From positions 1 to 64,000 of the IMG/VR virus record IMGVR_UViG_3300011116_000834: a DNA stretch of 64,000 bases, one strand, 5' to 3'. This DNA comes from a virus. Made by a program: the position numbers and the translations under genes. Position 1 is the stretch's first letter, and every line of letters begins with the position of its first letter. Positions 1,013 to 20,638 of the stretch are shown here, piece after piece. The notes beneath the pieces are model-generated. The model saw only the letters and a list, made by a program, of their open reading frames with translations. It was not told the origin of the DNA and did not search any database.

Positions 1013-1044
1013 AGCTAAATATCATGGAAATGTTCCTCAATGAT

Positions 1045-1808: not shown

Positions 1809-1809
1809 G

Positions 1810-2467: not shown

Positions 2468-2773
2468 TTACATCCGCGCTGCGACCAAATCATCAATGAT
2501 CTGATCAATCTTCTTGACACAGACCTTGCGGATCTCTTGAGGAACATCGTCGCCCTCAAAGAGGAAGTCGCCGTTCTCATCGACAACGACGAGGTGAAGA
2601 TCGAAACACTCGACCTCAGGAACAGTCTGAGTGCGACGACCAGCTGAAGCGAGGGGATAATCCCAAGCATCGGTGCGCTCGGTGTAGCTCACCATGATGT
2701 CTCCATAAACGAAGACCTGCTTGCCGTTGTAGACGATTGGCGCGAACTTGTTGTATTCGATTTCCATTTCCAT
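2468..2773 (-). CDS. Early acidic hypothetical protein (MEMEIEYNK...)
   Basis: Promoter TTGCAT(2807-2802)-16-CATATT-6-ATG. Confidence 0.75.
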   Translation of the reverse strand: MEMEIEYNKFAPIVYNGKQVFVYGDIMVSYTERTDAWDYPLASAGRRTQTVPEVECFDLHLVVVDENGDFLFEGDDVPQEIRKVCVKKIDQIIDDLVAARM

Positions 2774-2910
2774 ACCCACAATATGCCATGTATTTGGCTA
2801 GATGCAAATGCATTTAGCGATATTTCTGCATTTCGTATAAAAGTCCGATAAGGGTACTATCAACCCCGCCCCCCCATTCGGAGGGCGGGGTGGGTGAGGA
2901 AGACTGAGAG

Positions 2911-3219
2911 TTATTCGTGACCCCCCGTCGCGTAGAACTCATTCGACCACTCTTCAAAGAGTGGGTGCGTCGAGGTGAAGTCAACCACATTCTCCATCGG
3001 GGAGCAGGTGTGGTAACCATCCTGCAAGAGTGTGGCGCGTCCGATCTTCTCGCCATCCTTGAAGACGGTGAGGAAGCAGAGGTCATCGACCGCACGCACC
3101 TCCTCATATACGAGATCCGCGTTGTCGGAGCGGGAGAGGAGAAGATATCCCGCTCCGACGAGCGAGAAGGTGCATCCGTGATTGGCAAGGTGACGGGTGA
3201 GTGAGAGGATTGCGTTCAT
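2911..3219 (-). CDS. Early hypothetical protein (MNAILSLTRH...)
   Basis: Promoter TTGCAT(3253-3248)-16-CATACT-6-ATG. Confidence 0.75.
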   Translation of the reverse strand: MNAILSLTRHLANHGCTFSLVGAGYLLLSRSDNADLVYEEVRAVDDLCFLTVFKDGEKIGRATLLQDGYHTCSPMENVVDFTSTHPLFEEWSNEFYATGGHE

Positions 3220-3361
3220 GCCCATAGTATGCATTCAAATTAGCTCAATGCAAATCATCTTGGTGATATTTCTCAATATGATGTTATCTACCAATAAGCT
3301 AAAAGATAGAAATATCACCAAGATGATTTGCATCTTCAGAATTGGAATGCATACTGTTGGT
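3220..3361. promoter_or_regulatory. Back-to-back divergent leaderless promoters containing a perfect 26-bp inverted repeat
   Basis: atgcaaatcatcttggtgatatttct (3248-3273) versus agaaatatcaccaagatgatttgcat (3308-3333). Confidence 0.8.
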
Positions 3362-3616
3362 ATGAACACTCTTGAACGCAACACCGTGATCGCCGCTCTC
3401 CAGAACGGACTCTGCCGAGTCCAGTTTATCAAGGCAGATGGGACCGAGCGCGTGATGATCGCCACGCTCGCCGCATCGTACCTTCCCCAGACTACTGGCG
3501 GTACGCTCACCCGCTCTCCCGATCTCATCGTCTGCTTCGATACGGGAACCAACGCATGGCGTTCCTTTTATCTCCCCCGCGTGATTGAGTTCACGCCACT
3601 CTCAAAAGCGGCATAA
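3362..3616 (+). CDS. WYL_2 / Sm-like SH3 beta-barrel protein (DUF2693-type)
   Basis: VQFIKADGTERVMIATL...CFDTGTNAWRSF motif; promoter-defined start. Confidence 0.8.
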   Translation: MNTLERNTVIAALQNGLCRVQFIKADGTERVMIATLAASYLPQTTGGTLTRSPDLIVCFDTGTNAWRSFYLPRVIEFTPLSKAA

Positions 3617-3795
3617 GCCGCAAAGGACAACTCTCCTTTGGCAAACCCCTGACACGGTGTTGGGGGTTTGTCTGTTCCTATAATATAAAGTCCGATAACG
3701 GTTGATAGTATTTTATCGGATCGTCCGATAACAACAAAGCCAGAAATATCGTGCAAGTGATTTGCATCGAGCCAAATACATGGCATACTGTTGGT

Positions 3796-4113
3796 ATGAA
3801 CACCGCAGCAACCACAATCGCCAACCGCATCATCATGACCATCAAAACCTTCTGGCTCCCGCGCGGGATGCGCGTCGAACGATGCGACGAGCGCATCGAC
3901 GGGTCTTTCGATCTTGAGATCCGCATCGGGCATGGCGAGTCGCTCATCATGGGCATCGACGGCAACTGGGCGAAGGAGCCGGGCGAGAGGAATGTGAGTG
4001 TTAATTTCTCGCTGAAGGTCGACCAGTTTCAGGGGCATGAGCAGATGCGCCAGCTCGCGCAGTTGCTGGGTACGATGGTCCGCATCGGTGATGTTCTTGA
4101 AGAGAACCTCTGA
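3796..4113 (+). CDS. Early hypothetical protein (MNTAATTI...)
   Basis: Promoter TTGCAT(3762)-16-CATACT-6-ATG. Confidence 0.75.
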   Translation: MNTAATTIANRIIMTIKTFWLPRGMRVERCDERIDGSFDLEIRIGHGESLIMGIDGNWAKEPGERNVSVNFSLKVDQFQGHEQMRQLAQLLGTMVRIGDVLEENL

Positions 4114-4278
4114 AAGAGAACCTCTGACCATCTCCTGATTATCATCCTCTCCTCTCCCAAGCAAGGGGGAGGATGATAATCTTTAAACTACTATCAACCG
4201 CCGCGTCCGATAACAAATAAAACACAAAATATCCCTCAAGCGATTTGCATTGAGCTAATCATGTGGCATACTCTTGGC

Positions 4279-4893
4279 ATGAAGATTCTCATCTCACTCA
4301 CCGTTCTTGCGCTTTCACCTTTGGCATCTGCTTCCCTCACCTTTGAGGATCTTCCGATGCCTCCTGACCAGTACGCGACCATCCGCATTGCGGAGATGCC
4401 GCCCGCCTACAGCGGATTCACTTTCAGCAACTGGGGCTATTACACCGTCCCGAACGGCATCGACTTCAATGGTTTCGATGACGGCATCATCGGAACCCGT
4501 GCGCTCTACACTCCCACCAACAACGACAACGATGGGGGCGAGAATCGCTACACGATCTTTCGCTCTGAGCGGTTCACCTTCACTAGCGCAAGCGTGACGC
4601 AGTTGTTCGCTGCCGATAACGGTGGCGACGATTTCGGTGGCGATATCACTCGCCTCACGATCAAGGGATTCGTCGGTGACCATCAGGTCTACAGCGTCAA
4701 CCAGTACCTTGCGTATGCGGTTCGCCTGACTGTTACCGCTCCTGCGGTTGAGGTGGATCGGCTTGAGTTCTCGACGGATACGGGCGAAGGCTTCGCGATC
4801 GATAATCTCTATGCAGACCCGATTGTTCCTGCTCCTGCGTCGATCGCGCTCCTCGGTCTTGCAGGTCTGATCGGAAAGAGGAAGCGCAACTAA
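4279..4893 (+). CDS. Secreted PEP-CTERM-type (PAP variant) surface protein
   Basis: Signal peptide MKILISLTVLALSPLASA; C-terminal VPAPASIALLGLAGLIGKRKRN; promoter TTGCAT(4245)-16-CATACT-6-ATG. Confidence 0.85.
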   Translation: MKILISLTVLALSPLASASLTFEDLPMPPDQYATIRIAEMPPAYSGFTFSNWGYYTVPNGIDFNGFDDGIIGTRALYTPTNNDNDGGENRYTIFRSERFTFTSASVTQLFAADNGGDDFGGDITRLTIKGFVGDHQVYSVNQYLAYAVRLTVTAPAVEVDRLEFSTDTGEGFAIDNLYADPIVPAPASIALLGLAGLIGKRKRN

Positions 4894-4941
4894 ATCGGCA
4901 AAATGATTTGCCTTCGGTCGATTTGAGTGTATACTCTTGGC

Positions 4942-5145
4942 ATGGACACCACTCAAATCGACAACTGCTCGGACAACTACCTCATCGACGCATTCATCGA
5001 CCTCGACGCAGACTTCGATCTCTGCGTCACGGCAGCAGAGCGCGCTCGTCACCAAGAACTCAGAAATGAGCTGAAGGAAGAGATTGAGGCGCGTGGCTAC
5101 ACCGTCCGCGCGATCAACGGCGGATGGGAAATCAAGCAGAAGTGA
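4942..5145 (+). CDS. Early hypothetical protein (MDTTQIDN...)
   Basis: Promoter TTGCCT(4908)-16-TATACT-6-ATG; hairpin at about 5169-5197. Confidence 0.75.
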   Translation: MDTTQIDNCSDNYLIDAFIDLDADFDLCVTAAERARHQELRNELKEEIEARGYTVRAINGGWEIKQK

Positions 5146-5303
5146 CAAAACCGACATAAAAGGGATAGACCCCCCAACCAGTAATGGTGGGGGGTTTATT
5201 AATTTAATAATTTATTATTTTTCACCCACAGTCCGATAATGTTGATAGTATGACAAAGATTATCCCATACATTGGGATAATCGGTGATCGTAACTCCTTT
5301 GGG

Positions 5304-5474
5304 TTAGATGGTGTTGAAAAGGTTACGGGACTCGAGCTCGGCAAGAATGCGAGCTCGCTCATCCTCTTGGGCGGGATCGCGAATGATCCACTCGAGCTGC
5401 TTGAGCACGCGAATCAGCTCAGCTTCGGTGCGCTGCGAGAGGGGGATGTACTTGTGTGCTTCGATGGTGTACAT
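5304..5474 (-). CDS. Early small protein, 56 aa (MYTIEAHKYIPLSQRTEAEL...), not in ORF track
   Basis: Promoter TTGCAT(5508-5503)-16-CATACT-6-ATG; open to TAA at 5304. Confidence 0.75.
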   Translation of the reverse strand: MYTIEAHKYIPLSQRTEAELIRVLKQLEWIIRDPAQEDERARILAELESRNLFNTI

Positions 5475-5716
5475 GCCATGAGTATGCCATATGATTAGCT
5501 AAATGCAAGCGATTGTATTGATATTCTTTGCTGGTGCATCTGGTACAGACCATCCAGGTAAACCAGAGGGGTCATCACACTATGGGAAAGCTAGAAGGGA
5601 CTTATTATGGGACCCAGGGCTAGCAATTTTTCCCGCTACCAAAATCCCCCTTCAAAGTTGATTCCCCGAATTCCAAAATTTTTTCGCTATGAAAATTGAG
5701 TTTCTATAAGTCGCAT

Positions 5717-5749
5717 AAAAAACCCCCCATTGCTGGGGGGTTTTGTTTT
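5717..5749. terminator. Rho-independent terminator (bidirectional type)
   Basis: aaaaacccccc-attgct-gggggtttt. Confidence 0.7.
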
Positions 5750-6248
5750 ATTGATCAACTGCAAATATGGGAATTTCACCCACATCACCCAATCCTCCTA
5801 CTCCGAGGAATGGATATTTCGGTATATTCGGAATTAATCCAAATAGAGAGTTTAAATCGTTTGATGTATCGATCCCTGCATTTACTATGCTTCTACCATT
5901 AATGGATCTTATGAATCTATTTTGTCCAGACAATGTTCTCTTTTGCATTTTTCCAGTGTTTAGATTGAAGAACCATACTGTTGGACGAACAACATAACCA
6001 GATCCAGTGCTATGGGAATAGTTTGGCATGTTAAGAGGTGAATCTGGTGAATTCGCTGGTATTGCTGGACCAATGTTCAAGTTTCCGTTTTCATTTACAA
6101 CCCAATAGAAGTCGTTGCCATCCAGAAACCATTTACCTCCACCATTGGGTGGATATTCCGATGGTGGGATATTATCCATATTAAGGTCTTCATTCAATAA
6201 GGATTCGATTAATCTTTCTCTGATTCTATTTTTCATTTGATCGTGCAT
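5748..6248 (-). CDS. Putative head-internal protein, leader ...RLIESLLNE, Pro/Trp/Asn-rich
   Basis: Leader motif shared across the cluster. Confidence 0.7.
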   Translation of the reverse strand: MHDQMKNRIRERLIESLLNEDLNMDNIPPSEYPPNGGGKWFLDGNDFYWVVNENGNLNIGPAIPANSPDSPLNMPNYSHSTGSGYVVRPTVWFFNLNTGKMQKRTLSGQNRFIRSINGRSIVNAGIDTSNDLNSLFGLIPNIPKYPFLGVGGLGDVGEIPIFAVDQ

Positions 6249-6262
6249 ATTCTTATATATTG

Positions 6263-6270
6263 TATAAATA
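6263..6270 (+). promoter_or_regulatory. T4-type late promoter TATAAATA
   Basis: Exact gp55 consensus upstream of ATG 6297. Confidence 0.65.
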
Positions 6271-6296
6271 TCCTATACAACCTGAAGGAAAAATAT

Positions 6297-6587
6297 ATGA
6301 ACTTAAAAGAATATTATAGAGCAAGATTAAGTAATCTACTCAGCGAAGAAAAAGCGAAAAAGCAAAGTTTGGAAAAACAGTCCGATACCGCATTGGGAGA
6401 TTTGGAGGGTTTGATTGACGATGCGCATGCTAGGATGAAAAGATCTAATGATCCTAGATTCGCTGCGCAGCATAAAACCTTAGCAAACCATTTCATGGAT
6501 GCATGGAATCACCATATGGTCGGTGAATACGACAAGGCAATTGAAGTTGCTCGTCGTGGAATAGCAGCAAAAAGTAAGAAAGATTGA
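6297..6587 (+). CDS. Putative head-internal protein (MNLKEYYRARLSNLLSE...)
   Basis: AAGGA RBS; late promoter; LxE-ended leader. Confidence 0.7.
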   Translation: MNLKEYYRARLSNLLSEEKAKKQSLEKQSDTALGDLEGLIDDAHARMKRSNDPRFAAQHKTLANHFMDAWNHHMVGEYDKAIEVARRGIAAKSKKD

Positions 6588-7447
6588 ATAGAATTCTAAC
6601 CCAGATATCGTGTGAACTTGCTGCGTCTCCAGAAGAGCATCGCAGCGGTCTCATGCATAGAAGGAATCTTCCACCAGGAACTGGAATGCTCTTTCGGTTC
6701 GATGCACCAGACATTCTATCCTTCTGGGGAAGAAACACTCTCATTCCGCTCGACATTGCATTCATTGATGAGAATGGAATCATAGAGAGCATCGGAGCAA
6801 TTTCTCCACAGTCTCGGAATACCATTCGCAGCAATGGTCCATGTCTATATGCACTTGAGGTTTCTCGCGGAACATTCGATGAGCATGGTGTCCAAATAGG
6901 GAACTTCGTGCAAATGGAAAATAATAAATATGGAGTCGATGTTTCCATATATGAGGCATCAGAAAAAAATTTAAGGGAAAACACATTGAAAAGTTTAAAG
7001 ACTTTACTCAGGCAAAAATTAATAGAAAAGCAATTGTATAGTAATAATGCTCGTATAGAACAATTAAATCCTAACAATACAGGTAATAAAACAGAGGAAC
7101 CTGAATATTCACCTGAAGATCCAAATTGGCCTTCTTGGATTCCTATATTTCCTCCAGACCTTATAGAAAATGGTAGAGATATATGGATATTTAATCCCAA
7201 AGATGGATTATGGCATCATATACTTTATACTGGTTATGATACAATAATAATTAAAGATGAAATCCCATTTGGATTCCCACCAGGTGGTCATCTATATTGG
7301 AGACCAGGTATGGATGAACCTAGATTCCATTGGCCAATTATTGATAATGATAATTCATATGCTACAGAAATTAATTCACCTTCATCTACTCAAACATTAA
7401 AACCCAATTTTAATACATCACAAATAGTAGATACTAAAATAGATTGA
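6584..7447 (+). CDS. DUF192 domain fused to a Pro/Trp-rich module
   Basis: GLMHRRNL..GMLF.F....FWGRNTLIPLDIAFID...YALEV signature; C-terminal half resembles 7460-7948. Confidence 0.8.
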   Translation: MNRILTQISCELAASPEEHRSGLMHRRNLPPGTGMLFRFDAPDILSFWGRNTLIPLDIAFIDENGIIESIGAISPQSRNTIRSNGPCLYALEVSRGTFDEHGVQIGNFVQMENNKYGVDVSIYEASEKNLRENTLKSLKTLLRQKLIEKQLYSNNARIEQLNPNNTGNKTEEPEYSPEDPNWPSWIPIFPPDLIENGRDIWIFNPKDGLWHHILYTGYDTIIIKDEIPFGFPPGGHLYWRPGMDEPRFHWPIIDNDNSYATEINSPSSTQTLKPNFNTSQIVDTKID

Positions 7448-7459
7448 ATTGGAACTATA

Positions 7460-7948
7460 ATGAATCAGCAAATAAAAGATAAAATTAAGCGTAAAATATA
7501 TGAACATCTTTTAAAAGAACAAGAAATGCCTGAGGGGGAGGGCGATGGTTGGCTTGAAGACTGGCCTAACTGGATTCCTCATAATTTATATCCAGCTTCA
7601 GGTCCAGGAGTGGGTCCACATATTCCAATTTGGATTTGGAATCCAGATGATAACACATGGTATCAGGTTTATTATTCACATAATCCTCCAGGATGGGTTA
7701 GAATAATTGAGCAACGACCAGGTGATGTGGGGCACCCACCAAATGGTTTGTTTTGGAAGCCAGGAATGAAGTACCCAAAACTTCAGAATCCCGTACTACC
7801 TCGTATACCACCCACTATACCAAGACCCTCAAAACCATTAACAAATCCAAATCCATGGTATGATCCTAATGGTGAGTTTCCTTGGAATACACCATGGGAT
7901 CCGATTCAAAATAGGCCGCTCAAACCACTATCACAGCAACTAGATTAA
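7460..7948 (+). CDS. Pro/Trp-rich putative internal protein, leader ...KIYEHLLKE
   Basis: Leader plus WPxWIP and WKPGM motifs; terminator at about 7952-7985. Confidence 0.75.
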   Translation: MNQQIKDKIKRKIYEHLLKEQEMPEGEGDGWLEDWPNWIPHNLYPASGPGVGPHIPIWIWNPDDNTWYQVYYSHNPPGWVRIIEQRPGDVGHPPNGLFWKPGMKYPKLQNPVLPRIPPTIPRPSKPLTNPNPWYDPNGEFPWNTPWDPIQNRPLKPLSQQLD

Positions 7949-8000
7949 TACAAACAAATCCCATCGAAAGGTGGGATTTGTTTTTACATAAATATGTAAT

Positions 8001-8342
8001 ATGGATTTTACAAAATATTATAAATTCAAACTTCAAGAGCAATTGATTAATCCACCAGGAACAATCAATCCACATCGACCAGGTTCTCCAGGTTATAATA
8101 GCAATCCTCAATTTCCAGGAACACCGCCAGGAACAGTTCCTCCCGTATCACCACCACCAGTTAATGATCATCCAGTATTTCAGGGTCCTAATGATAATCC
8201 TAACAATCGATCTCCTATATTGTGGGAACCACCACCATACTGGCATCCAATCTGGAATCCGAAAGGATATCATCCAATTTGGAATCCCCATGGTATAAAG
8301 GGAAACTGGGGACCATTACGACCAGGTGAAGATTATGTCTAA
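8001..8342 (+). CDS. Pro-rich putative internal protein (MDFTKYYKFKLQE...), HPIWNP repeat
   Basis: CATAAATA late-like promoter at 7987; leader motif. Confidence 0.7.
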   Translation: MDFTKYYKFKLQEQLINPPGTINPHRPGSPGYNSNPQFPGTPPGTVPPVSPPPVNDHPVFQGPNDNPNNRSPILWEPPPYWHPIWNPKGYHPIWNPHGIKGNWGPLRPGEDYV

Positions 8343-8351
8343 ATATACAAT

Positions 8352-9116
8352 ATGGAAAATATAACTCATAAATTTTGGTTGAAACCAGGCGGAACACTTC
8401 ATACTTTTGAAGATAGCATTACGCATCATCATATACATGAGGTTCTTGATCATCCAGAACAATTTGGTACTTCTATTCCCGAATTGACTGCAATTCATCA
8501 AGAAGGCAGAAAAGCAGGAATAGAGTCACATGATATCTCGCATCCTGATTTTACTTGGTCTGAAGGAATCCATAATTTTCTTGCAAAAAAGGGATTCATT
8601 CGTGGGTTAAACAACTCAAATAAACGGAAGAGTAGTTTTGATCTACAGTCGTCAAAGGGTCAACCACACCCAAGTGAATTCGTAGAACATGTTCGTGGTT
8701 TGGTTCAGCATATACCAAAAGACGACAGACCAATTTTAATTCATCTAGATTTTAATCCATTTGCAGATAAGGATGATCCTCATGGAACTTCAGTTGAAGA
8801 ATTTGACGACACTGCTAAAAAATTCTTAGAAGATCGTGGGATAGATAAAAAGCATTATAAAGATACAGGATCGATTCATCTTACAAGTTGGCAGGATATT
8901 CATAAATTTATAGGTGAATCTGGCGGAAAAAGAAGAAGAATTGGTGATATCGATGAACCCAATTCAGTTACAAGTGCTCATGTGCGAAATGCATTAGGTG
9001 CAAATCCAGGAAATGTTCCAAAGGCAATTTGGAATAACATGAGAAATTTTGGAGATTCCTATACTCCAAGCATATTGTCATTTAGATCTTTCCTAAAGGA
9101 AATGTATTCTAAATAA
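8352..9116 (+). CDS. His-rich hypothetical protein with C-terminal SFRSFLKE motif
   Basis: Long ORF within the operon. Confidence 0.75.
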   Translation: MENITHKFWLKPGGTLHTFEDSITHHHIHEVLDHPEQFGTSIPELTAIHQEGRKAGIESHDISHPDFTWSEGIHNFLAKKGFIRGLNNSNKRKSSFDLQSSKGQPHPSEFVEHVRGLVQHIPKDDRPILIHLDFNPFADKDDPHGTSVEEFDDTAKKFLEDRGIDKKHYKDTGSIHLTSWQDIHKFIGESGGKRRRIGDIDEPNSVTSAHVRNALGANPGNVPKAIWNNMRNFGDSYTPSILSFRSFLKEMYSK

Positions 9117-9131
9117 TAGGGAAATTCATAT

Positions 9132-9731
9132 ATGGATATAAATCAATTCAAACAATCATTGCAAAATGTTTTCCTAAACGAAAACTCATATAATACCCAT
9201 GATATAAAAGCATGGCAAAGCGGAGTTCGAAGTGCACAACTTTCGGGTAATCCAAATTTCAGAACAGGATTACAAGCACATCCTTTGTTCCATGCTGGAT
9301 ATCAAGCAGGAATGCGTATTGGACCACATGCAGAAGATCCATCTCATATGGCAAATGCAGTAAGTCCAGAAAGACTTCGCTCATATCGGGATTCGACAAA
9401 AATACATGATCATATGGTAGCAAAGGTAGCAGATCACTTTGCTCCTATTCTTGCTGGTCAAGAACCAGATATGATTCCACATTATAAGAATCTAATATCT
9501 TCTCATCTTAATAATCACGAAAGTGGTCAATTCAAATCATCAAAAGATGCAGCAACTGCTGCATTGCAGATCTTTGGCAATCACCCAAACATGAGCAGAC
9601 GCTGGGATGATGTAATTACATCGTGGGAAGGCAGCACACATAATCCAAATTATAGATCTCGTAATTCGCAAGGAAGTCCATTCCGAAATGAGTCTGCTGC
9701 CAATCATTGGTATGCTCATACATTTTTCTGA
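9132..9731 (+). CDS. Putative internal protein, leader ...NVFLNE, His-rich
   Basis: Long ORF; leader motif. Confidence 0.75.
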   Translation: MDINQFKQSLQNVFLNENSYNTHDIKAWQSGVRSAQLSGNPNFRTGLQAHPLFHAGYQAGMRIGPHAEDPSHMANAVSPERLRSYRDSTKIHDHMVAKVADHFAPILAGQEPDMIPHYKNLISSHLNNHESGQFKSSKDAATAALQIFGNHPNMSRRWDDVITSWEGSTHNPNYRSRNSQGSPFRNESAANHWYAHTFF

Positions 9732-9739
9732 GAACACAT

Positions 9740-10849
9740 ATGCTAACATTTAGAAATTTTATCGTTGAATCCGAAGAAAACAAATTATTTCTTGAAGATG
9801 AAAGATTTGGAGATTATCTCGTATATCTTTCTGAAGCACATCTATCTCTACTTTCAGAAGCACAGTTATCATTGAATGTGATAAATCCCCATGGAAACAA
9901 TCAACAAGTTTCATGGGGTAGTGTGAAGCAAGGATTTGATCAGGCATCAAATCGACAACAAAGAAGAAACCTTGCAAGGGAAGCAAGAAAGATTCGTCCT
10001 CAGAATCTACTTGGTGCTGAAGGATCAAATCCAAAACTTGCAAAGGAAGGTGAGAATGTTCCAGAATATGCAACCAAGGGACTTTCACTTACTCCATCGG
10101 ATGAATCTGGAAGAATCAATACTTGTTCATGTGCAACAGAAGAATGTCGCGCTGCTTGCTTGAATAAAGCAGGTCGTGGAGCAATGACATTCACACAAAA
10201 GGCAAGACTTGCGCGAACCAACTTCATGTTGGATCATCCTCAGCATTTCATGTCAATGCTTCATGATGAAATCGATGCACATGAAAAATCAGCAACCAAG
10301 AAGGGCAAGAAAGCAGCAGTTCGTCTGAACATCGTTTCCGATATTCCTTGGGAAAAACTACATCCTGAAGTCTTCAGTCAACATCCAAATACTCAGTTCT
10401 ATGATTATACCAAGATTGCAGGAAGAGTATTAAATCCAGATGGATCTAAGAAGCAACTTCCTTCAAATTATCACCTGACATTCTCTTCCACGGGTATACA
10501 TGATCGTGGAAACTGGGATGATGCAAGAAAGCATCTTGACAATGGTGGAGTCGTCGCAATGGTATTCAAAGTACCAGCAGCAAGAAATGGAAAGAAAGGT
10601 GGAGATCTTCCCACTCATGTAGTAGACCAGAAGACTGGAAAGAAGTATAGAGTAATTGATGGAGATCTTCACGATCATAGACATCTGGATCATGTTTATA
10701 ACGATGCATCACCAGATGAAGGATTGATTGCTGGTCTTCGTATCAAAGGTGGAAGGAAGATGGCAGAGAAAGCAGGAGATTTTGCTGTTTCCACAACTCC
10801 TGGACAAGATCATGTTGTTGTTCCAGATATTCAAAGGAAGAAAAAATGA
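9740..10849 (+). CDS. GP88-family Cys-motif protein with capsid-targeting-like leader MLTFRNFIVE
   Basis: CSCATEECRAACLNKAGRG, VRLNIVSDIPWE, QFYDYTK, NYHLTFS and IDGDLHDHRHLD motifs. Confidence 0.75.
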   Translation: MLTFRNFIVESEENKLFLEDERFGDYLVYLSEAHLSLLSEAQLSLNVINPHGNNQQVSWGSVKQGFDQASNRQQRRNLAREARKIRPQNLLGAEGSNPKLAKEGENVPEYATKGLSLTPSDESGRINTCSCATEECRAACLNKAGRGAMTFTQKARLARTNFMLDHPQHFMSMLHDEIDAHEKSATKKGKKAAVRLNIVSDIPWEKLHPEVFSQHPNTQFYDYTKIAGRVLNPDGSKKQLPSNYHLTFSSTGIHDRGNWDDARKHLDNGGVVAMVFKVPAARNGKKGGDLPTHVVDQKTGKKYRVIDGDLHDHRHLDHVYNDASPDEGLIAGLRIKGGRKMAEKAGDFAVSTTPGQDHVVVPDIQRKKK

Positions 10850-11568
10850 ATTACGAATTTAAAAATAAATTAAAAGCAAGATTGTATGAACAATTATTGA
10901 ATGAACAAATCGCCAAACCAATAAAAAACATTTTAGTAGATCCTTCTTTATGGATACCATGGATTAAGGGAATATTCAGAACGGATATAGAGCGTTTCGG
11001 TGTGCGTTTATTTTCTAATAAAGAAACTATTCAACGATTTCTTGGTAGAACTCTTACTGCTGAAGAAATGGCAGCAATGAGAGCAAATGGTACTTGGGAA
11101 AGATATCAGAATGCTTATAGAGATTCTACTGAATTCTGGCATATAATTGAAAATTGGGGAGGTGTAGGAAAATTTGGACTTAATAATTTTGATAATTTCT
11201 ATCTAACTCAGGAAGGTAGATATTTTGTACAAAATATAGAAAATGGAAAATGGTATGGTGTAGGAGTAAGAGGATATCCAAATCCCAGTCCTCCACCAGC
11301 AACTCTTGTTAGACTTTATCCAGAATTTGAAATGCCACCAGGCTGGAAACCAGGAATGGACTATCCTCATGATGTTGGAGGTGGGTCAGGAGTTGGAACA
11401 ATGAGAAATCCTAATAATGAAGAAATGGGACATGGAGTTGGAATCATTCGTAATGGACCTGGACCTGGATCTGGATCTGGACCTGGATCAATACCATCAG
11501 GTGAAAGACCAACTGAAGATCGTGGAATAGATCCATGGAATTCAGATACACCCTTTCAACAAGCATAA
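10846..11568 (+). CDS. Tagged paralog A (leader ...RLYEQLLNE; C-term EDRGIDPWNSDTPFQQA)
   Basis: Shares core and tail with 12729-13448 and 13458-14177. Confidence 0.8.
   Translation: MNYEFKNKLKARLYEQLLNEQIAKPIKNILVDPSLWIPWIKGIFRTDIERFGVRLFSNKETIQRFLGRTLTAEEMAAMRANGTWERYQNAYRDSTEFWHIIENWGGVGKFGLNNFDNFYLTQEGRYFVQNIENGKWYGVGVRGYPNPSPPPATLVRLYPEFEMPPGWKPGMDYPHDVGGGSGVGTMRNPNNEEMGHGVGIIRNGPGPGSGSGPGSIPSGERPTEDRGIDPWNSDTPFQQA
11515..11568 (+). repeat. 54-bp 3' coding repeat, copy 1 (identical at 13395-13448; 4 mismatches at 14124-14177)
   Basis: gaagatcgtggaatagatccatggaattcagatacaccctttcaacaagcataa. Confidence 0.95.
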
Positions 11569-11572
11569 TATT

Positions 11573-11606
11573 AAAAAACAACCCCCGCAAAACGGGGGTT
11601 GTTTTT
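11573..11606. terminator. Bidirectional terminator between convergent genes
   Basis: aaaaacaaccccc-gcaaaac-gggggttgttttt. Confidence 0.8.
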
Positions 11607-11620
11607 ATTTCATTATTAAT

Positions 11621-12679
11621 TTATTCATACCATAGATCTGGTTTTCTTCCCCCTCTTGGTCGTTCTGGTCTTTGGGGTTCAATAGTTCTTACACTATCGT
11701 CTATCCACCATTCAGCACCTTCCGCTGGATTCTTTATCCATTGTCTATTTTCTCTATCCCAATAAAATGTATTTGGAGTATATCCTCGTATTAATCTCCA
11801 TTGTCCTCTATATTGTTCATATGCAGGATTTTGGATATAACGCCAATGACCCCCTTCGACATCCCATACCCATCCATCTGGCGGATGTGCATCTGGCGTT
11901 CCTTCTCCAGGCATACCCCATCCCCATGGATGCATTCCATGAACATATGGATTTTCATAACTTTCATCACCTGGATGTGATGTATATTGCCATCCTCTAT
12001 CTTCATAATACTGTCTGAATATATTATTAAGTGTTCCATCGGGATCTCTATAATCTAGTGGTGGAGCAGCTTCTTCGGGGGTCATTGGACCACCTTCGCG
12101 TAATCTCATTATTACTAATAGCATTCCAGCAATTCCCCACATCTGATTTCTAAATTTATCCGATAGTAAATATGCCATTGTTCCATCAGGATCCCATTGA
12201 CCACCTCCTTGATATAAATGTCTATGTTCATATAACCAATCAAATAAATCTTCAGCAGTACGAACTCCAGGAGCTAAGTGATCTCTTGTATTCATGCAAA
12301 GTTCTAATAAACTATGAGCTTTACGATAATAATCATGTCCAATTGGTGGAGGCCATGATACATTTGGTGGCCATCCTGGTGGAGCAAATGGAGGGTATGG
12401 AACAGGTGGTACTCTACCATTAGGATCAAATAACCAAGGCCATGCCGATGGGGGATTACCACTTCCATCCCATGAACCCCATCCTCCAAAATTTTCATCA
12501 GCAGATGGAGTCTGCCATGGATGCATTCCATGGAATCTATCCATCCAACCTGGTGGTGCATCTGGTGTTGCTTGTTGAGATCCTTGACCAATATTATATT
12601 CACCAGTATCTTGTGTTCCTAATGAATTGGGATCAGTGATTTCAAGAATAACTTTATAATGATTAGCTAGTTTTTTCAT
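11621..12679 (-). CDS. Pro/Trp/Gly-rich putative internal protein (MKKLANHYKVILE...), HGMHPW repeat
   Basis: TATAAATA on the minus strand at 12699-12692; leader. Confidence 0.8.
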   Translation of the reverse strand: MKKLANHYKVILEITDPNSLGTQDTGEYNIGQGSQQATPDAPPGWMDRFHGMHPWQTPSADENFGGWGSWDGSGNPPSAWPWLFDPNGRVPPVPYPPFAPPGWPPNVSWPPPIGHDYYRKAHSLLELCMNTRDHLAPGVRTAEDLFDWLYEHRHLYQGGGQWDPDGTMAYLLSDKFRNQMWGIAGMLLVIMRLREGGPMTPEEAAPPLDYRDPDGTLNNIFRQYYEDRGWQYTSHPGDESYENPYVHGMHPWGWGMPGEGTPDAHPPDGWVWDVEGGHWRYIQNPAYEQYRGQWRLIRGYTPNTFYWDRENRQWIKNPAEGAEWWIDDSVRTIEPQRPERPRGGRKPDLWYE

Positions 12680-12728
12680 AGTTCTATAGATTATTTATAA
12701 AAGATATATAATTGGTTGGAGATATTAT

Positions 12729-13448
12729 ATGTTTTATAAAAATCAAAATAAACTCACAGAACAAAATCGCAATTTATTGCAAAAAGGATTATTAAATAAA
12801 TCCTTTAAAAATAATAAAATTGATTTAAATGAACAATTAGCACCAAAAGGAAAAATGTATCAATGGCTTTTGGACAAAGTGCCAAGAGGAATATGGCATC
12901 CACTCATAGAACCTGGATGGGGGATATTCAAAATGTGGGAATCTACGGTGGAACGAGAATTACTTTCCATGACTCCCGAAGAATTTGCAGCATTATCAGA
13001 TGCAGCAAGAGCAGCATATAATGCAAGAAGGGCTGAAGCTATAAAATGGAGAGAAACTGCTGCTCTTTTAAAGCAAGAACGAAGGGGAATGTGGACTAAA
13101 TTTTTCACAACAAAAGACGGTAGAGTAATTGCATATAATGAAACAGAGGGAATATGGTATGGGTTAAGCAAAGAAGGATATAGGCGTCCCGATGGAACAA
13201 TTTATTATAGACCAGAACCAAGATTTCCAATGCCTGAAGGTTGGAAACCAGGAGATCAACCTCCCAACTTTACAGATACTCATCCAGTAGGACTAGGACC
13301 TGCTCCTTTATATAGTGGTGGAACAATCAATGTTGGCGACATAAACGATGATAGATTAGATACATTTGGTCCAGCAAGAGCTACTCCACCAACAGAAGAT
13401 CGTGGAATAGATCCATGGAATTCAGATACACCCTTTCAACAAGCATAA
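12729..13448 (+). CDS. Tagged paralog B
   Basis: TKDGR.IAYNETEGIWYG core; C-terminal tag. Confidence 0.8.
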   Translation: MFYKNQNKLTEQNRNLLQKGLLNKSFKNNKIDLNEQLAPKGKMYQWLLDKVPRGIWHPLIEPGWGIFKMWESTVERELLSMTPEEFAALSDAARAAYNARRAEAIKWRETAALLKQERRGMWTKFFTTKDGRVIAYNETEGIWYGLSKEGYRRPDGTIYYRPEPRFPMPEGWKPGDQPPNFTDTHPVGLGPAPLYSGGTINVGDINDDRLDTFGPARATPPTEDRGIDPWNSDTPFQQA

Positions 13449-13457
13449 GGATATTTT

Positions 13458-14177
13458 ATGAAAACAGATATTGCATCATTAAAGATATTACTAGAGAAAA
13501 AATTAAATGAAAAATTTAATTTACAAGAACAAACACCAAATTTCTGGAAAGGTCAGTGGTGGAGACCATTACGAGATGTTATTTATCCAAATCATCTTGG
13601 TCAGCGTCCATGGGAAGTTGTATCTCATTGGATAAAGGGTGAAGGAATGAGATTATGGGAAATGACCGAAGCTGAAATTCAGGCTCTATTACAGCAATAT
13701 AGAGAAAGAAATGATTTAGAGGGATATTCTAGAATTATAGGTCAATTGGTGAAAGATAAAAAATATATTACTTTAGCACGCGAATTAGAAGAATCTATGG
13801 TTGGATCACATTTTACTGAATTTACCATAACTAAAGATGGTAGATGGATAGCATTTAATGAAACAGATGGTAGATGGTATGGAATTGGAAAGATACAACA
13901 TGGATGGAACCAAGTTGTAGATGGAAGAGGTACAACAAATAGAGTTCCAGCATACACACACGAACCAAGATATCCAATGCCTGAAAATTGGAATCCAGGA
14001 GATCCAATTCCATATAGTCCACCACAACCAGGATCAAATAATGTAATTAGTCCAGGAATTGGTTCCAATAATCCATATGATGATTTTGATCATTTGGGTA
14101 GTACTCCCGCAGGTTCACCAACTGGAGATCGTGGAATAGATCCATGGAATTCAGATACACCATACCAACAAGCATAA
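13458..14177 (+). CDS. Tagged paralog C
   Basis: TKDGRWIAFNETDGRWYG core; tail GDRGIDPWNSDTPYQQA. Confidence 0.8.
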   Translation: MKTDIASLKILLEKKLNEKFNLQEQTPNFWKGQWWRPLRDVIYPNHLGQRPWEVVSHWIKGEGMRLWEMTEAEIQALLQQYRERNDLEGYSRIIGQLVKDKKYITLARELEESMVGSHFTEFTITKDGRWIAFNETDGRWYGIGKIQHGWNQVVDGRGTTNRVPAYTHEPRYPMPENWNPGDPIPYSPPQPGSNNVISPGIGSNNPYDDFDHLGSTPAGSPTGDRGIDPWNSDTPYQQA

Positions 14178-14190
14178 TAAAGGAATCAAC

Positions 14191-15363
14191 ATGAAATATG
14201 ATTTATCAGAAAAAAGAATACAACCACCTAAAGATTTTTGGTGGAATCCAGGAGATGGTGAATATTTTGAAAGACCAGGACCACTAGATCCAATGGATTT
14301 TGATCCAATGGATCCTCCACCCGATCCCACCCATTGGGATTGGGAGATAAAACCAAATGGTATACCGCGCGGAAAGTGGTACGACACGGATACTAGGTAT
14401 AATGGTCCCGAGCGCTTTGGTCCTCGTCCCAATCCATCGAATCCTCCATCATGGTGGGGTGGGACTGCTGCTGCATGGGCAAGATATGCTCATTGGTTAA
14501 TCAGAGGTGTTGCGCTTATTCCATTATTCATAAATCAATCATGTGGAGGCGATTGTCAGGATGGAGTTGTTCCAGGAACCGCCTACCCTTTGCAACCAGG
14601 ATATGGTTGGAGATGGATTAATGATGGAGAATTTCTTAGGTACTACAAACCAGATGGAAATGGTGGATGGGTGGAAGCATCTGATGAAGATATCAACCTA
14701 TTCTTCAATATGCCTGGATTTCCATCTGGATGGTATCAGGGATGGGATCAAAATGGAAAACCTTGTATCTATAAACCAGATGGTACTGTAGCAACAGATC
14801 AAGAAATTCTTGATATTCAAAATAGACATCCAACTCCAGTTGGACCACCAGTAAATACTAAACCAACAGGTCCAGTAGCAAATGAACCAATTCAACTAAC
14901 TGCTCTTGAAGGATATGATCAAATGTCTATGAATAGATTACCAGAAAATAATAAATCTATAAACTTTAAATCATTACTTGAAGCAATTAAAGCAAACAAG
15001 GCAAAGAAAAAACTTGCCATGAGAAACTATACATCTCCAGCTAGTCTTCCTGATTCACCATTAGGTGGAGATAAAAACGCAGGAAATGCAGTTGGTCGTT
15101 CTCGCATAATCAATCAAGCAAAATCAACATGGCAAAGAGATTTCAATACTCGTTCAGCACAAAGAAAAGCAACAGATGCTGCATATACTGCAATGGGCGA
15201 ACCTGCTTCAATTGATCTTTATACTAAAGCAATGAAATTGGTAGCAGCAAAGAAAAGATCTGCACAACAATCTGGATTAGAATTCAATGCACAACATGCT
15301 GGACAAGATCTAATGAGAACTGTTACTTCGGTAAAACCTCATCATGGTGCATATACTTATTAA
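14191..15363 (+). CDS. Pro/Trp-rich protein with two YKPDG repeats and a basic C-terminal domain
   Basis: AAGGA RBS; long ORF; terminator at about 15388-15412. Confidence 0.8.
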   Translation: MKYDLSEKRIQPPKDFWWNPGDGEYFERPGPLDPMDFDPMDPPPDPTHWDWEIKPNGIPRGKWYDTDTRYNGPERFGPRPNPSNPPSWWGGTAAAWARYAHWLIRGVALIPLFINQSCGGDCQDGVVPGTAYPLQPGYGWRWINDGEFLRYYKPDGNGGWVEASDEDINLFFNMPGFPSGWYQGWDQNGKPCIYKPDGTVATDQEILDIQNRHPTPVGPPVNTKPTGPVANEPIQLTALEGYDQMSMNRLPENNKSINFKSLLEAIKANKAKKKLAMRNYTSPASLPDSPLGGDKNAGNAVGRSRIINQAKSTWQRDFNTRSAQRKATDAAYTAMGEPASIDLYTKAMKLVAAKKRSAQQSGLEFNAQHAGQDLMRTVTSVKPHHGAYTY

Positions 15364-15452
15364 ATAAATTTTTATTAAATATAAAAGAAAACCCCCCGTA
15401 AGGGGGGTTTTTGTTGATTAAGATCCACCACCTGGAGTATAAATTCCACTAT

Positions 15453-15962
15453 TTAACCATATGGATTTGCATATCCACCAAAGTCAGTTGGTTCGGATCT
15501 TCCACCCATTGGAAGTGATCTTGTTTGATATCCGCTATAGGGATCTACAGTTGGAGGAATGTATCTACCGTTATAATCAGTAGGTTGTGATCTTCTATCA
15601 CCCATTCCTATTCTTCTGTATTGATTACTATTATAATATGGATCTATGATTGGAGGAATTCCACCTTTGTAATCGGTAGGTTGTGATCTTCTATCACCCA
15701 TTCCTATTCTTCTGTATTGTGGAGATCCTGGTGGTAATGGTGAGGGAAATGGACTTGGTGTTGGTTCTGGTCTTGGATCTGGTCTTGGTGGGGATGGTGG
15801 GAAATCAGGTGGAAGATTTGGTGGTCCACTCATTCTTCTAAATGCACCTTGATTGTTGTTGCCACCATAAACTGGTCTGGCATATCCACCGTATCCTTGA
15901 TCTTCTGCGTAACCAATACCCTCGTTGAGCATTTTACGAATTGTTGTAGTTAATGATTCCAT
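15453..15962 (-). CDS. Gly/Pro/Tyr-rich putative internal protein (MESLTTTIRKMLNE) with a 32-aa internal repeat
   Basis: QYRRIGMGDRRSQPTDY occurs twice, plus a degenerate third copy. Confidence 0.75.
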   Translation of the reverse strand: MESLTTTIRKMLNEGIGYAEDQGYGGYARPVYGGNNNQGAFRRMSGPPNLPPDFPPSPPRPDPRPEPTPSPFPSPLPPGSPQYRRIGMGDRRSQPTDYKGGIPPIIDPYYNSNQYRRIGMGDRRSQPTDYNGRYIPPTVDPYSGYQTRSLPMGGRSEPTDFGGYANPYG

Positions 15963-15994
15963 TTAATTTTTTCCTTTTAATTTATTTATTTCCA

Positions 15995-16516
15995 TTACCA
16001 AGTCGATGGATTCCAAAGTTCTCTTTTTGGTGCCCATCGTTCACCAGGTACTGATCCACCTGGTTGTTCTATTGGATGATCTGGACTATCTGGTTTTGGT
16101 GTTCCTTGATGCACCACTCCATCTCCCGCTGGATCAACCCAATTGGATCCAGATGGCTGAATTTGTAGACCAGGACCATTTACAGTAATATCATTTGCTC
16201 CTGAACCATGGCGAACACACCACCAATATAAACCGCCAATTTTTACCCATAATCCACATCCTATACAGTTGGGGGGTATCCATGTAGGCCAATTATATCT
16301 TGGAGTTCCAGGTTCAGTTTCTGTTGGTCCTACTCTTGGTCCAGGATTGGGAGTAATTATTCTCGGACCACCAAGACCACCACCAGATGAACCAGAACCA
16401 GGAGGTCCTGGTGCTCTCACTCGAACTTTACCCCCATATGGATTATTTGGATTGAATTGTTCAGCAAATAATGATTCTACCAATCGTGATCTGATTATAT
16501 TTTTAATATTATTCAT
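15995..16516 (-). CDS. Pro/Gly/Trp-rich putative internal protein (leader ...RLVESLFAE)
   Basis: Leader; WPTWIP motif. Confidence 0.75.
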   Translation of the reverse strand: MNNIKNIIRSRLVESLFAEQFNPNNPYGGKVRVRAPGPPGSGSSGGGLGGPRIITPNPGPRVGPTETEPGTPRYNWPTWIPPNCIGCGLWVKIGGLYWWCVRHGSGANDITVNGPGLQIQPSGSNWVDPAGDGVVHQGTPKPDSPDHPIEQPGGSVPGERWAPKRELWNPSTW

Positions 16517-16525
16517 TTATTCTTT

Positions 16526-17410
16526 TTATTCCGTTGGATATTGATATTTATCATTATTAGTGGTTTCTTCTTCATCATTTTGTTCATCTGAACTATATTC
16601 AGAATCATAATCCGATTGTAAATTATCTTGAGCAATTAAATGATTTTTAGTATGTACGAGATCTGGAGAATGAAGACCTACATGAGTTAATTTAGAATGT
16701 ATATCGGTAAATCTTTCTTTAGCTCTTAATAAATTTGCTTGTCTGGAAAGATTCATTTTATCTTGCTTTTCCTTTTCTGCCTGCTTATCTTTCCATATTT
16801 GATACCAATTTTTTCCTTGATTTAGATCAGATTCGGTAGTTTTCCACTTTTGCATTTCGCCTTGTGCTTTTTCTAGTTGCTTCTTGAGATTTTGATCTAG
16901 ATTTAGCAAATACATTGCAGGATGCTTATTTACCTGATTTAACAAATGATCAGATGGTGGTTGTTGTGGACCACCCATTTGTGCTGCTCCTTGCGGTTGG
17001 GATTGTGCCTGACCCTGACCAACTCCAGATTGTTGCATTTTACGCATCATATCTGCTGGATTGCCACCAGCACCTGGTTGTTGTTGTTGTTGCTGTTTTT
17101 GCTGCATTGATTCTTGAGTTTCAATGTCTATACCATATAGTTTGGCAAGAGATATTAAATAATCTCTGGAATTCTTCTCTATATTGAAGCCTCCACCACC
17201 ATTGACTGTTCCATTTGCATTTTCTTGACCAGGATTTAGTGCATCCACATAGGGATTATAGATTGGCATATTTTTGGGTTGTCCGACACCAAAGAAATTA
17301 CCACTACCAATTGATATTTGAATTGGAGTTGCTAATGGATCCTGGGGTGGGAGATCCAGGTCTCCCCCTGGTTCTGCTTTTTCTAATATAAATTTCTTAA
17401 ATGATATCAT
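16526..17410 (-). CDS. Gln-rich protein with capsid-targeting-like leader MISFKKFILE
   Basis: Closest match in the cluster to the T4 CTS MKTYQEFIAE. Confidence 0.75.
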   Translation of the reverse strand: MISFKKFILEKAEPGGDLDLPPQDPLATPIQISIGSGNFFGVGQPKNMPIYNPYVDALNPGQENANGTVNGGGGFNIEKNSRDYLISLAKLYGIDIETQESMQQKQQQQQQPGAGGNPADMMRKMQQSGVGQGQAQSQPQGAAQMGGPQQPPSDHLLNQVNKHPAMYLLNLDQNLKKQLEKAQGEMQKWKTTESDLNQGKNWYQIWKDKQAEKEKQDKMNLSRQANLLRAKERFTDIHSKLTHVGLHSPDLVHTKNHLIAQDNLQSDYDSEYSSDEQNDEEETTNNDKYQYPTE

Positions 17411-17475: not shown

Positions 17476-17805
17476 ATGATTATGAATCACCTAAATATTT
17501 TTGAAATTTATCCAAATTATTCTATTTTATCATTAATTGATGATGATTTTGATGATGATGAATTTGAAGAAGAGGAAGATGATGAGGATCTTGATGATGA
17601 CTTCGAAGACGATGATGACTTCGAAGACGATGAAGATTTTGAAGATGACGATGAAGAAGATTTCGACGATGATGATTTAGATGATGATGATTTAGATGAT
17701 GATGATTTAGATGATGATGATGATGATGATGATGAAAATGGATATGATGATGATGAACATCAAGAATATGAATATGAAACTGATGATGAAGATCCTTATC
17801 GGTAA
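17476..17805 (+). CDS. Extremely acidic (poly-Asp/Glu) protein, possible nucleic-acid mimic
   Basis: RBS and promoter; about 80-residue D/E tract punctuated by F/L. Confidence 0.7.
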   Translation: MIMNHLNIFEIYPNYSILSLIDDDFDDDEFEEEEDDEDLDDDFEDDDDFEDDEDFEDDDEEDFDDDDLDDDDLDDDDLDDDDDDDDENGYDDDEHQEYEYETDDEDPYR

Positions 17806-18033: not shown

Positions 18034-18411
18034 ATGCGTGACTATACTATTGAAGTTTTTCTAAATGAAGAGTATGGATATAAGACTTGGATTTGGAATC
18101 CAAATATGGGTGAAGATGAATTCGTTTCATGGTGGAATGATCTAACTGAATCTGATATCATCAAGTATTTTTTCAATATCAAAGCACTTCCAGGCACACT
18201 CAAAGAATATGTGGAAAAGTCCCCAGGAACTGTTTCTGTTAGAGAAACAGGCGATCCAACATCACATCGCCCATATTATTACTGCCATTTCCATGATGTG
18301 AATGATTCCTATATTTCAGTAGGAACAAATAATTATCGCTTCCGCAATCGTTCTCGTTACGATTGGAAGGAGCATTGGTTGGATCATCAATTGAGCAAGA
18401 ACAAGTCTTAA
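18034..18411 (+). CDS. Hypothetical protein
   Basis: ORF in operon. Confidence 0.7.
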   Translation: MRDYTIEVFLNEEYGYKTWIWNPNMGEDEFVSWWNDLTESDIIKYFFNIKALPGTLKEYVEKSPGTVSVRETGDPTSHRPYYYCHFHDVNDSYISVGTNNYRFRNRSRYDWKEHWLDHQLSKNKS

Positions 18412-20374: not shown

Positions 20375-20638
20375 ATGAAAATTTCAAATTTTTTCAAATT
20401 ATTCTTAAATGAAGAAGATCCCCAACAGGTTCGTCTTTATAAGGAAAGATTGACCGAATGTATTCTTATTCAACTTCCAAAGGAAGCAAATAAAGGTGAT
20501 TTGAAAGAACTTCTTCATATTTCTCAAGTTATTTCGGATATGCAGAAAAATTCTGCAATTATTATTCCAGATTCTTGGAAAATTAGTAAAATTTCTGTTG
20601 ATGTTTCTCTCGGTGTTTATGTAAAACCCCAGGATTAA
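20375..20638 (+). CDS. Hypothetical protein with leader-like MKISNFFKLFLNE
   Basis: ORF; CTS-like N-terminus. Confidence 0.6.
   Translation: MKISNFFKLFLNEEDPQQVRLYKERLTECILIQLPKEANKGDLKELLHISQVISDMQKNSAIIIPDSWKISKISVDVSLGVYVKPQD

Follow-up and report, generated by a model that had tools for sequence, protein, structure and literature searches.

The window analyzed here, a stretch of 64,000 nt forming the first 64 kb of the 108,402-bp IMG/VR virus record IMGVR_UViG_3300011116_000834, comes from an uncultured aquatic T4-like myovirus, and between positions 5748 and 17410 (11.7 kb) it carries 16 non-overlapping, tightly packed open reading frames (ORFs) of 96–390 aa on both strands. With a probability of about 0.6, these 16 genes form an expanded, hypervariable internal-protein (IP) locus. 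For their products we infer core binding, cleavage, packaging and ejection, and possibly an effector or anti-defense role, as follows. About 10–12 of them would carry an N-terminal amphipathic helix acting as a capsid targeting sequence (CTS); this leader would bind the gp22/gp67-type scaffolding core during prohead assembly and be cut off by the gp21-type S77 prohead protease, the cut falling just behind the Glu that ends a hydrophobic-x-Glu motif, and the mature proteins would remain in the DNA-filled head and exit with the DNA at infection. The cargo would turn over quickly among related phages, and in this phage would be made up mainly of small Pro/Trp-rich proteins that expanded within the lineage, each consisting of a disordered linker, a Trp-rich beta unit of ~50 residues and a disordered tail.

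The record has an estimated completeness of ~60% (CheckV) and encodes a gp32-type single-stranded DNA-binding protein and baseplate wedge genes. Its major capsid protein matches gp23 (E=2.6e-138) with only ~55% identity to the gp23 of cyanomyoviruses and pelagimyophages, and no cultured phage is close; a megablast search of the region against 50,697 phage records gave no match. Genes for the machinery on which a CTS would depend are present. An S77 (gp21-type) prohead protease gene lies beyond the window at genome positions 69657–70301 (PF03420, E=7.8e-38, at 69672–70151), a gp22-type scaffold protein is encoded (phrog_237, E=3.5e-71), and a gp67-like core protein is found at 69088–69636 by a weak match (E=0.0026).

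The evidence for the leader consists of the motif itself, its enrichment in the region, its conservation on homologs and the presence of syntenic clusters in related phages. Twelve of the 16 genes (referred to below by their first coordinate) begin with a helix ending in hydrophobic-x-Glu. The leaders had been proposed in a first-pass annotation of the same DNA; the N-terminal strings it quoted are all present at the genes to which it assigned them, and all 12 end in L/I/F-x-E. Enrichment over the other N-termini of the genome had been set beforehand as a test, and this is what was found when 17 region genes were compared with 102 genes elsewhere in the genome. L/I/F-x-E occurs within residues 3–26 in 15/17 region genes and 34/102 others (p=2.5e-5), and two hydrophobic residues followed by x-E in 11/17 against 18/102 (p=1.5e-4). 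An a priori pattern taken from the T4 CTS and not from the window (hydrophobic residues at P7, P4 and P3, Glu at P1) is present in 8/17 against 10/102 (p=6e-4), where the chance expectation, calculated from whole-protein density, is 0.056 per N-terminus. An 8-residue matrix was also built from the 12 proposed leaders, and each was scored by leave-one-out and ranked against 107 other N-termini; ten of the 12 fell within the top ~8%, and the score reached by most leaders is attained in only 0.09% of internal windows. The best-scoring N-termini outside the seed set include those of 18034, 20375 and both ORFs flanking the protease gene (69088, the gp67-like gene, and 70298). The gp67-like protein and the ORF following gp21 belong to a class of proteins known to be cut by gp21. 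The genes of the locus, with one further candidate to its right, are as follows.

5748..6248, minus strand: 166-aa Pro/Gly/Asn-rich protein; 20-residue long leader, predicted cut after Glu20; leave-one-out score 15.0, rank 0/107.
6297..6587, plus strand: 96-aa basic helical protein; weak 17-residue leader (leave-one-out rank 20/107); exact T4 late octamer TATAAATA 34 nt upstream.
6584..7447, plus strand: 287-aa apparent fusion of DUF192 (residues 8–110), an internal leader-like helix ending L-I-E and a Pro/Trp domain paralogous to 7460.
7460..7948, plus strand: 162-aa Pro/Trp-rich protein (Pro 19%, Trp 7%); 20-residue long leader.
8001..8342, plus strand: 113-aa protein, Pro 24%; 13-residue leader; CATAAATA 14 nt upstream.
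8352..9116, plus strand: 254-aa protein without a leader of its own; phmmer matches in L097, L098 and L101 (E=3e-13).
9132..9731, plus strand: 199-aa protein; 17-residue leader ending F-L-N-E, leave-one-out rank 8/107; no family match.
9740..10849, plus strand: 369-aa GP88-domain protein; canonical 10-residue CTS (MLTFRNFIVE), helical/disordered linker of ~85 residues, radical-SAM-like barrel in the predicted model.
10846..11568, plus strand: 240-aa member of a three-paralog family; 20-residue long leader; leave-one-out score 14.6.
11621..12679, minus strand: 352-aa Pro/Trp-rich protein (Trp 7%); proposed leader without statistical support (rank 65/107); exact TATAAATA 20 nt upstream.
12729..13448, plus strand: 239-aa paralog; divergent N-terminus with possible L-x-E sites at residues 9–11 and 33–35.
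13458..14177, plus strand: 239-aa paralog; 18-residue leader; leave-one-out score 15.3.
14191..15363, plus strand: 390-aa Pro/Trp-rich protein; no leader by the matrix, a short L-S-E only (residues 5–7).
15453..15962, minus strand: 169-aa Pro/Gly/Arg/Tyr-rich repeat protein; 14-residue leader, leave-one-out score 10.0, rank 3/107; AATAAATA 28 nt upstream.
15995..16516, minus strand: 173-aa Pro/Gly/Trp-rich protein; 19-residue long leader; GATAAATA 36 nt upstream.
16526..17410, minus strand: 294-aa Gln-rich protein; canonical 10-residue CTS (MISFKKFILE).
20375..20638, plus strand (extra candidate beyond 5748–17410): 87-aa protein; 13-residue leader ending F-L-N-E, third-best non-seed N-terminus of the genome.

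In the T4 genome (NC_000866), MKTYQEFIAE opens both ipII and ipIII, and a related propeptide of 19 residues opens ipI. The gp21 protease cuts after L/I-x-E, IP propeptides are 10–19 residues long, and within the CTS residues 4 and 7 direct targeting while residues 8 and 10 direct processing (PMC9026906). Two forms of leader are found in the present locus. The canonical 10-residue form (9740 and 16526) has Phe4, Phe7, Ile8 and Glu10 and matches that of T4 nearly position for position, and the other is an N-terminally extended form of 13–20 residues, mostly ending L-N-E. Counted back from the Glu, the long leaders of 5748, 7460, 10846 and 15995 have hydrophobic residues at P7, P4 and P3, like the T4 CTS, and six long leaders are hydrophobic at P7 and P4. 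The same four are clearly alike over 19–20 residues (the leader of 5748 is 54% identical to that of 15995, their cargoes not being alike), while the cargoes of the four are not detectably similar save for a shared hairpin unit. The head proteins of the genome show related motifs: its gp67-like protein, with which T4 gp67 aligns, starts with a helix ending in an L-L-x-E type motif similar to the long leaders, and its gp23 has L-F-E near the position of the T4 gp23 cut site, L-T-E.

As far as can be tested in sequence, the locus agrees with the T4 CTS/IP class in every feature: an N-terminal propeptide of 10–19 residues, the hydrophobic CTS positions 4, 7 and 8 with a terminal Glu, a conserved leader before diverse cargo, gp21 (S77), gp22 and gp67 homologs in the same genome, and hypervariability among related phages. 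It differs in that the 10–12 candidates lie in one 12-kb cluster, compared to three scattered ip genes in T4, in that most leaders are longer and end L-N-E, and in that the cargo is Pro/Trp-rich and without homology to T4 IPs (no PHROG match). A conserved CTS with diverse cargo has been published for the IPs of T-even phages (PMC3012670), and the CTS has been proposed as an evolutionary device by which T4-like phages load varied proteins (PMC9026906). The principle is already known in T-even phages, and what differs here is the scale, the second, longer form of leader, and the cargo; no description of a CTS family in T4-like phages from marine or other aquatic habitats turned up in the literature available for searching.

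The scan of genome and relatives that had been suggested in the first-pass annotation found that leader matches cluster not only in the region but also at the same genomic position in related contigs, where 5–13 genes carry a T4-type or long leader. Three viral contigs have a full-length homolog of the GP88 gene (9740). In one (L003) five further genes behind it carry the 10-residue leader (six in all). In the contig G003 (146 kb, estimated to be ~80% complete, with an S77 protease), 12 of the 16 leader matches in the entire genome fall within one 13-kb cluster around GP88. Closer relatives (L093, L094, L097/L098, L100 and L101; 71–82% identity) were fetched using the conserved gene 19447 as an anchor. 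Among these, L093, L094, L097, L100 and L101 share a common order of GC-rich cassettes, a leader cluster of 5–8 genes, a poly-Asp/Glu gene, and homologs of 17805 and 18034. The window cluster, with its 16 genes, is about twice the size of theirs. Of the cargo in 5748–17410, only the GP88, 16526 and 8352 genes have homologs among the relatives; L093 and L100 have orthologs of 16526 (E=1e-56 to 1e-58) in which Phe4, a hydrophobic residue 8 and Glu10 are preserved even though other leader residues change.

The clusters of the relatives mix the canonical short leader with long leaders of 14–24 residues ending L-N-E or similar, and Pro/Trp-rich cargo is found behind both kinds (e.g., L093 104–646, 1792–2526 and 3656–4240; L100 4881–5528 and 5537–6145). 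Leader-bearing proteins of the relatives are richer in Pro+Trp than their other proteins (Mann-Whitney p=0.011, the genome of the window excluded), and nearly all of the most Pro/Trp-rich proteins of at least 100 aa start with a leader-like helix. These clusters provide the strongest evidence that the long helix may do the same work as the short CTS, and that Pro/Trp-rich proteins may be a recurrent cargo of the clade.

The 9740 product matches PF17338 (GP88) with E=6.5e-38 (131 bits, cut-off 24.4), and 72 of 118 metagenomic homologs of its gene that start with Met show the leader pattern of a hydrophobic residue 4, L, I or V at 8 and Glu at 10. In the GP88 homologs of mycobacteriophages and pelagibacter podophages, and of most small viral contigs, the alignment begins only at residue ~60–110, so the leader and linker are an addition specific to this T4-like group. 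Taken with T4 ipII and ipIII, the leaders of 9740 and 16526, the clusters of the relatives and the S77 protease, the GP88 homologs leave the earlier identification of the leader as a T4-type CTS well supported by comparison. The AlphaFold2 (AF2) model of GP88 has a confidence (pLDDT) of 85, and radical SAM enzymes make up 24 of the 25 top VIA-align rows, with Z values of only 4.0–5.8. Three Cys are invariant in 63 sequences, with a spacing of Cx6Cx3C (CxxxCxxC in canonical radical SAM proteins), and there is no Pfam radical SAM match. GP88 may be a capsid-borne enzyme of an Fe-S/radical-SAM-like kind, which is a lead rather than an assignment. PDB sequence searches with 9740, 8352 and 14191 returned nothing below E=0.27.

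When all 16 proteins were searched against Pfam and PHROGs, GP88 and DUF192 were the sole matches, PHROGs adding none. DUF192 (PF02643, E=6.8e-26, 90.7 bits, cut-off 27) occupies residues 8–110 of the 6584 product, which has no N-terminal leader; its leader-like helix, ending L-I-E, lies between DUF192 and the Pro/Trp domain. The blastp alignment of 6584 with 7460 (E=4e-8) starts from residue 3 of 7460 and therefore includes the leader, and 6584 looks like a DUF192 domain fused onto a leader-cargo gene. Another arrangement that, like this fusion, bears on the recruitment of cargo is seen at 8001–8342, which encodes a leader and a Pro-rich stretch and is in the same frame as 8352–9116, the two being separated by one TAA and 9 nt. 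In L097, L098 and L101 the homolog of 8352 is a single 395-aa ORF that encodes both a canonical 10-residue CTS and a Pro-rich linker, and the alignment begins at residue 64 of that homolog. The pair 8001/8352 could represent a split gene, stop-codon read-through or two genes.

The first-pass annotation described the locus as about 16 Pro/Trp/Gly-rich proteins that are otherwise unrelated. The number of genes stands, but only 11 of the 16 have this composition (Pro 8–24% against a background of 3.9%, Trp 2–7% against 1.1%), the products of 6297, 8352, 9132, 9740 and 16526 being different, and the proteins are not all unrelated. Genes 10846, 12729 and 13458 form a paralogous family (E 1e-13 to 1e-27), 7460 has a paralog in the C-terminal half of 6584, and all five of these proteins share a small unit, a Trp-rich hairpin followed by a P-P-G-W-K-P-G-like motif. 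A near-identical 58-nt 3' end is present in the three paralogs (within 11449–11568, 13329–13448 and 14058–14177) and encodes their last 16–19 residues, while the remainder is 34–41% identical at the protein level, which points to gene conversion, to a recombination site or to a C-terminal tag under strong constraint.

Structure and disorder prediction had also been advised at the outset. The AF2 model of 7460 has a helix at residues 3–20 that ends at the predicted cut site, a disordered linker, a beta unit at 57–109 (pLDDT 62–85) and a disordered tail. No solved structure matched this model (Foldseek E>0.5; VIA-align best Z 2.9), and a word-based search found one homolog of 7460, 59% identical, on a 924-bp contig from another sample. 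A search for loci related to 13458 found none, the 14191 product has no PDB, Pfam or PHROG relative and the 5748 product no Pfam or PHROG match, and the ESM Atlas model of the 11621 product (pLDDT 0.39) gave no look-alike. A profile of the paralogs, run against 1.84 billion representative proteins, retrieved only the five proteins of the window, one relative, and FG-GAP proteins. The latter match through 4–6 short blade-like stretches each (E 1e-12 to 1e-5), whereas the window proteins have one such unit each, no Pfam FG-GAP match and no fold match above Z 2.9. The FG-GAP proteins were not taken as homologs, and the Pro/Trp domain was read as a single blade-like hairpin rather than as a member of the FG-GAP/beta-propeller class. 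Likenesses of the Trp hairpin to WW domains, choline-binding repeats and the RSL lectin were considered, and no match supported them.

Strong hairpin terminators divide the interval into convergent units, and three bidirectional terminators were located.

5719..5744: GC hairpin terminator at the left edge of the locus.
11574..11606: terminator between convergent units.
15388..15411: terminator between convergent units.

The T4 late octamer, TATAAATA, is exact at two of the three late promoters that had been claimed, 6263(+) and 12692–12699(-), while the third, at 7987, reads CATAAATA and matches at 7/8 positions. Four of the five exact copies in the window sit 20–34 nt upstream of a start codon. 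Late-promoter-like NATAAATA sites lie 14–36 nt upstream of five region genes or operon heads; within 80 nt upstream the motif is found at 5/17 region genes and 17/102 genes elsewhere, where it precedes tail, neck and core genes.

Several points weigh against an IP locus. The leader of 11621–12679(-) fails the leave-one-out test and that of 6297 is weak (a similar N-terminus is seen on one gene of the relative L101), so that 10 of the 12 proposed leaders held up. A convincing N-terminal leader is absent in 6584, 8352, 12729 and 14191, or in 4–6 of the 16 genes in all. The motif is short, and the long leader was defined in part after the fact. Where the T4 IPs and gp23 have Ala behind the Glu, the proteins here have Asp, Glu, Gln, Asn, Ser, Lys or Gly, and the mature proteins are not basic (pI 5.0–9.3), unlike T4 IPII and IPIII. 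The exact late octamer is no commoner in the window than expected (5 found, 6 expected), and the phage is known from a metagenomic contig alone. In 18034, the best-scoring protein outside the region, the 'leader' is conserved as strongly as the rest in 65 of 73 homolog clusters. Its N-terminal motif is probably part of a fold, and 18034 was rejected as an additional leader-bearing member because its N-terminus is conserved like the remainder of the protein; the motif alone therefore yields false positives and is no proof.

The helices might be no targeting or cleavage signals at all, but a shared helix for oligomerization or for contact with a membrane surface, or a side effect of A-rich 5' codons, on ordinary proteins of a hypervariable region that are not part of the virion. 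Lys/Asn/Ile-rich N-termini are favored in AT-rich genomes, the T4-derived pattern (hydrophobic-x-x-hydrophobic-hydrophobic-x-Glu) is also found at N-termini of tail and replication proteins among its 10 occurrences elsewhere, the 18034 match points the same way, and some promoters may be sigma-70-like. This explanation is nevertheless doubtful, as codon bias accounts neither for the fixed Glu end nor for the clustering in G003; the leader on GP88 homologs is kept only in this phage group, the 10-residue form is nearly identical to the experimentally defined T4 CTS, and none of the locus proteins has the kind of hydrophobic stretch that marks a signal peptide or membrane anchor. That the Pro/Trp-rich ORFs are not real genes but compositional artefacts of a non-coding or decaying region is highly improbable. 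They have almost no homologs among the 1.84 billion representative proteins, structure is predicted with low confidence, and long ORFs exist in alternative frames, but ORFs of 113–390 aa tile the region gaplessly in a genome of 37% GC, with terminators only between convergent units. The paralogs are related at the protein level with divergent DNA, the 59%-identical homolog comes from another sample, and the same class of composition recurs behind leaders in L093 and L100.

The leaders could also be genuine and the cargo something other than injected effectors. Leader-bearing Pro/Trp proteins would then enter the prohead as assembly or core accessories, like T4 gp67/gp68 or the inner body of phiKZ-type phages, and be degraded or kept as DNA-associated filler. 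T4 gp67, gp68 and Alt are gp21 substrates that enter the head via the core, and the long leader resembles the N-terminal helix of the gp67-like protein (69088–69636). The low-complexity, poorly structured cargo would suit such a role, as would the further L/I-x-E sites downstream in several candidates, given that in T4 cleavage breaks the core proteins into pieces that mostly exit the head (PMC9026906). Unlike the proteins of the window, however, T4 core proteins are conserved, have acidic tails and are encoded in the head module; the present cluster is far from that module, in a hypervariable region beside early cassettes. Nearly all of the cargo differs between close relatives, which fits accessory arms-race genes better than assembly parts, and the T4 IPs that share this leader are injected and can be dispensed with (PMC3012670; bioRxiv 10.1101/2022.04.14.488369). 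An accessory role is thus unlikely. The ejection or inner-body proteins of phiKZ, 201phi2-1 and SPN3US resemble the locus in that many different proteins, present in large numbers, are loaded into the head via propeptides cut after Glu at a minimal motif (PMC9026906, PMC5694885), but their motif is S/A-x-E, the propeptides are long and share no short tag, and the phage described here is an ordinary-sized T4-like phage.

Under the favored interpretation as an IP locus, the best guess is that the cargo consists of ejected proteins acting within minutes of the start of infection; the tail channel would presumably let small or disordered proteins through easily. A more specific scenario, which is quite unlikely, is that the Pro/Trp-rich proteins are a new capsid-packaged family (cleavable long leader, disordered Pro-rich linker and single Trp-rich unit resembling a beta-propeller blade) that, once the leader is gone, self-assembles from blades into propellers or condenses in the head and, after ejection, acts jointly on the host envelope or first-line defenses. 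If true, an ordinary T4-like phage would have an 'inner-body-like' cargo, and the DUF192 fusion and the split 8001/8352 would show how the leader recruits new cargo. Should the leaders function like those of T4, sequence alone would reveal which proteins uncultured T4-like phages package and inject, and the locus would be a catalog of first-minute infection proteins, including candidate anti-defense factors, the fastest-evolving in the genome; its Pro/Trp-rich cargo is without recognizable relatives. The occurrence of a 10-residue and a longer tag on the same class of cargo is a natural experiment on the requirements of a targeting signal, which also bear on efforts to fill capsids with foreign proteins by means of the T4 CTS.

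To the left of the locus is a GC-rich (~50%) array of small cassettes. A GC-rich block (50–55%, compared to 36–38% elsewhere) adjoins the leader cluster both here (window 1000–5700) and in G003 (130000–146037), and the two blocks have one short stretch in common (tblastx, 52% over 63 aa). The idea that the GC-rich first 5.5 kb is an assembly chimera was dropped because of the similar block beside the cluster of G003 and this shared stretch. Rfam detected only tRNAs in window positions 1–26000, and a tRNA-Thr called by ARAGORN at 6012–6095, inside the coding sequence of 5748–6248(-), was not confirmed by Rfam and is probably a false positive.

To the right, a poly-acidic gene (17476–17805) is followed by genes kept in the relatives (17805, 18034, 18849, 19286 and 19447). 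The 109-aa product of 17476–17805 is 62% Asp+Glu and could be a DNA mimic or a counter-ion protein; a similar poly-acidic gene occupies the same position in L093, L094, L097 and L101. The gene at 18034–18411 belongs to a conserved 125-aa Trp-rich family with 73 clusters in the protein collection and no Pfam domain, and an ESM Atlas search gave no usable match. Its product has a W-I-W-N-P hairpin motif, as in the expanded Pro/Trp cargo, and judging from this sequence the family may be the conserved founder of the motif. A homolog of 20375 adjoins the leader cluster of G003.

Among the related contigs, the leader-bearing cargo gene at L003 11952–12497 has homologs in cultured KVP40-like Vibrio phages (ValKK3, nt-1 and VH7D), and the match begins at residue 1, so that the leader is included. 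The canonical-leader protein encoded at G003 122631–123251 (L005 12065–12685, minus strand) has a C-terminal part that resembles, by eye, a VanY/M15-type peptidoglycan peptidase, and if it is of this type it would be a packaged cell-wall hydrolase.

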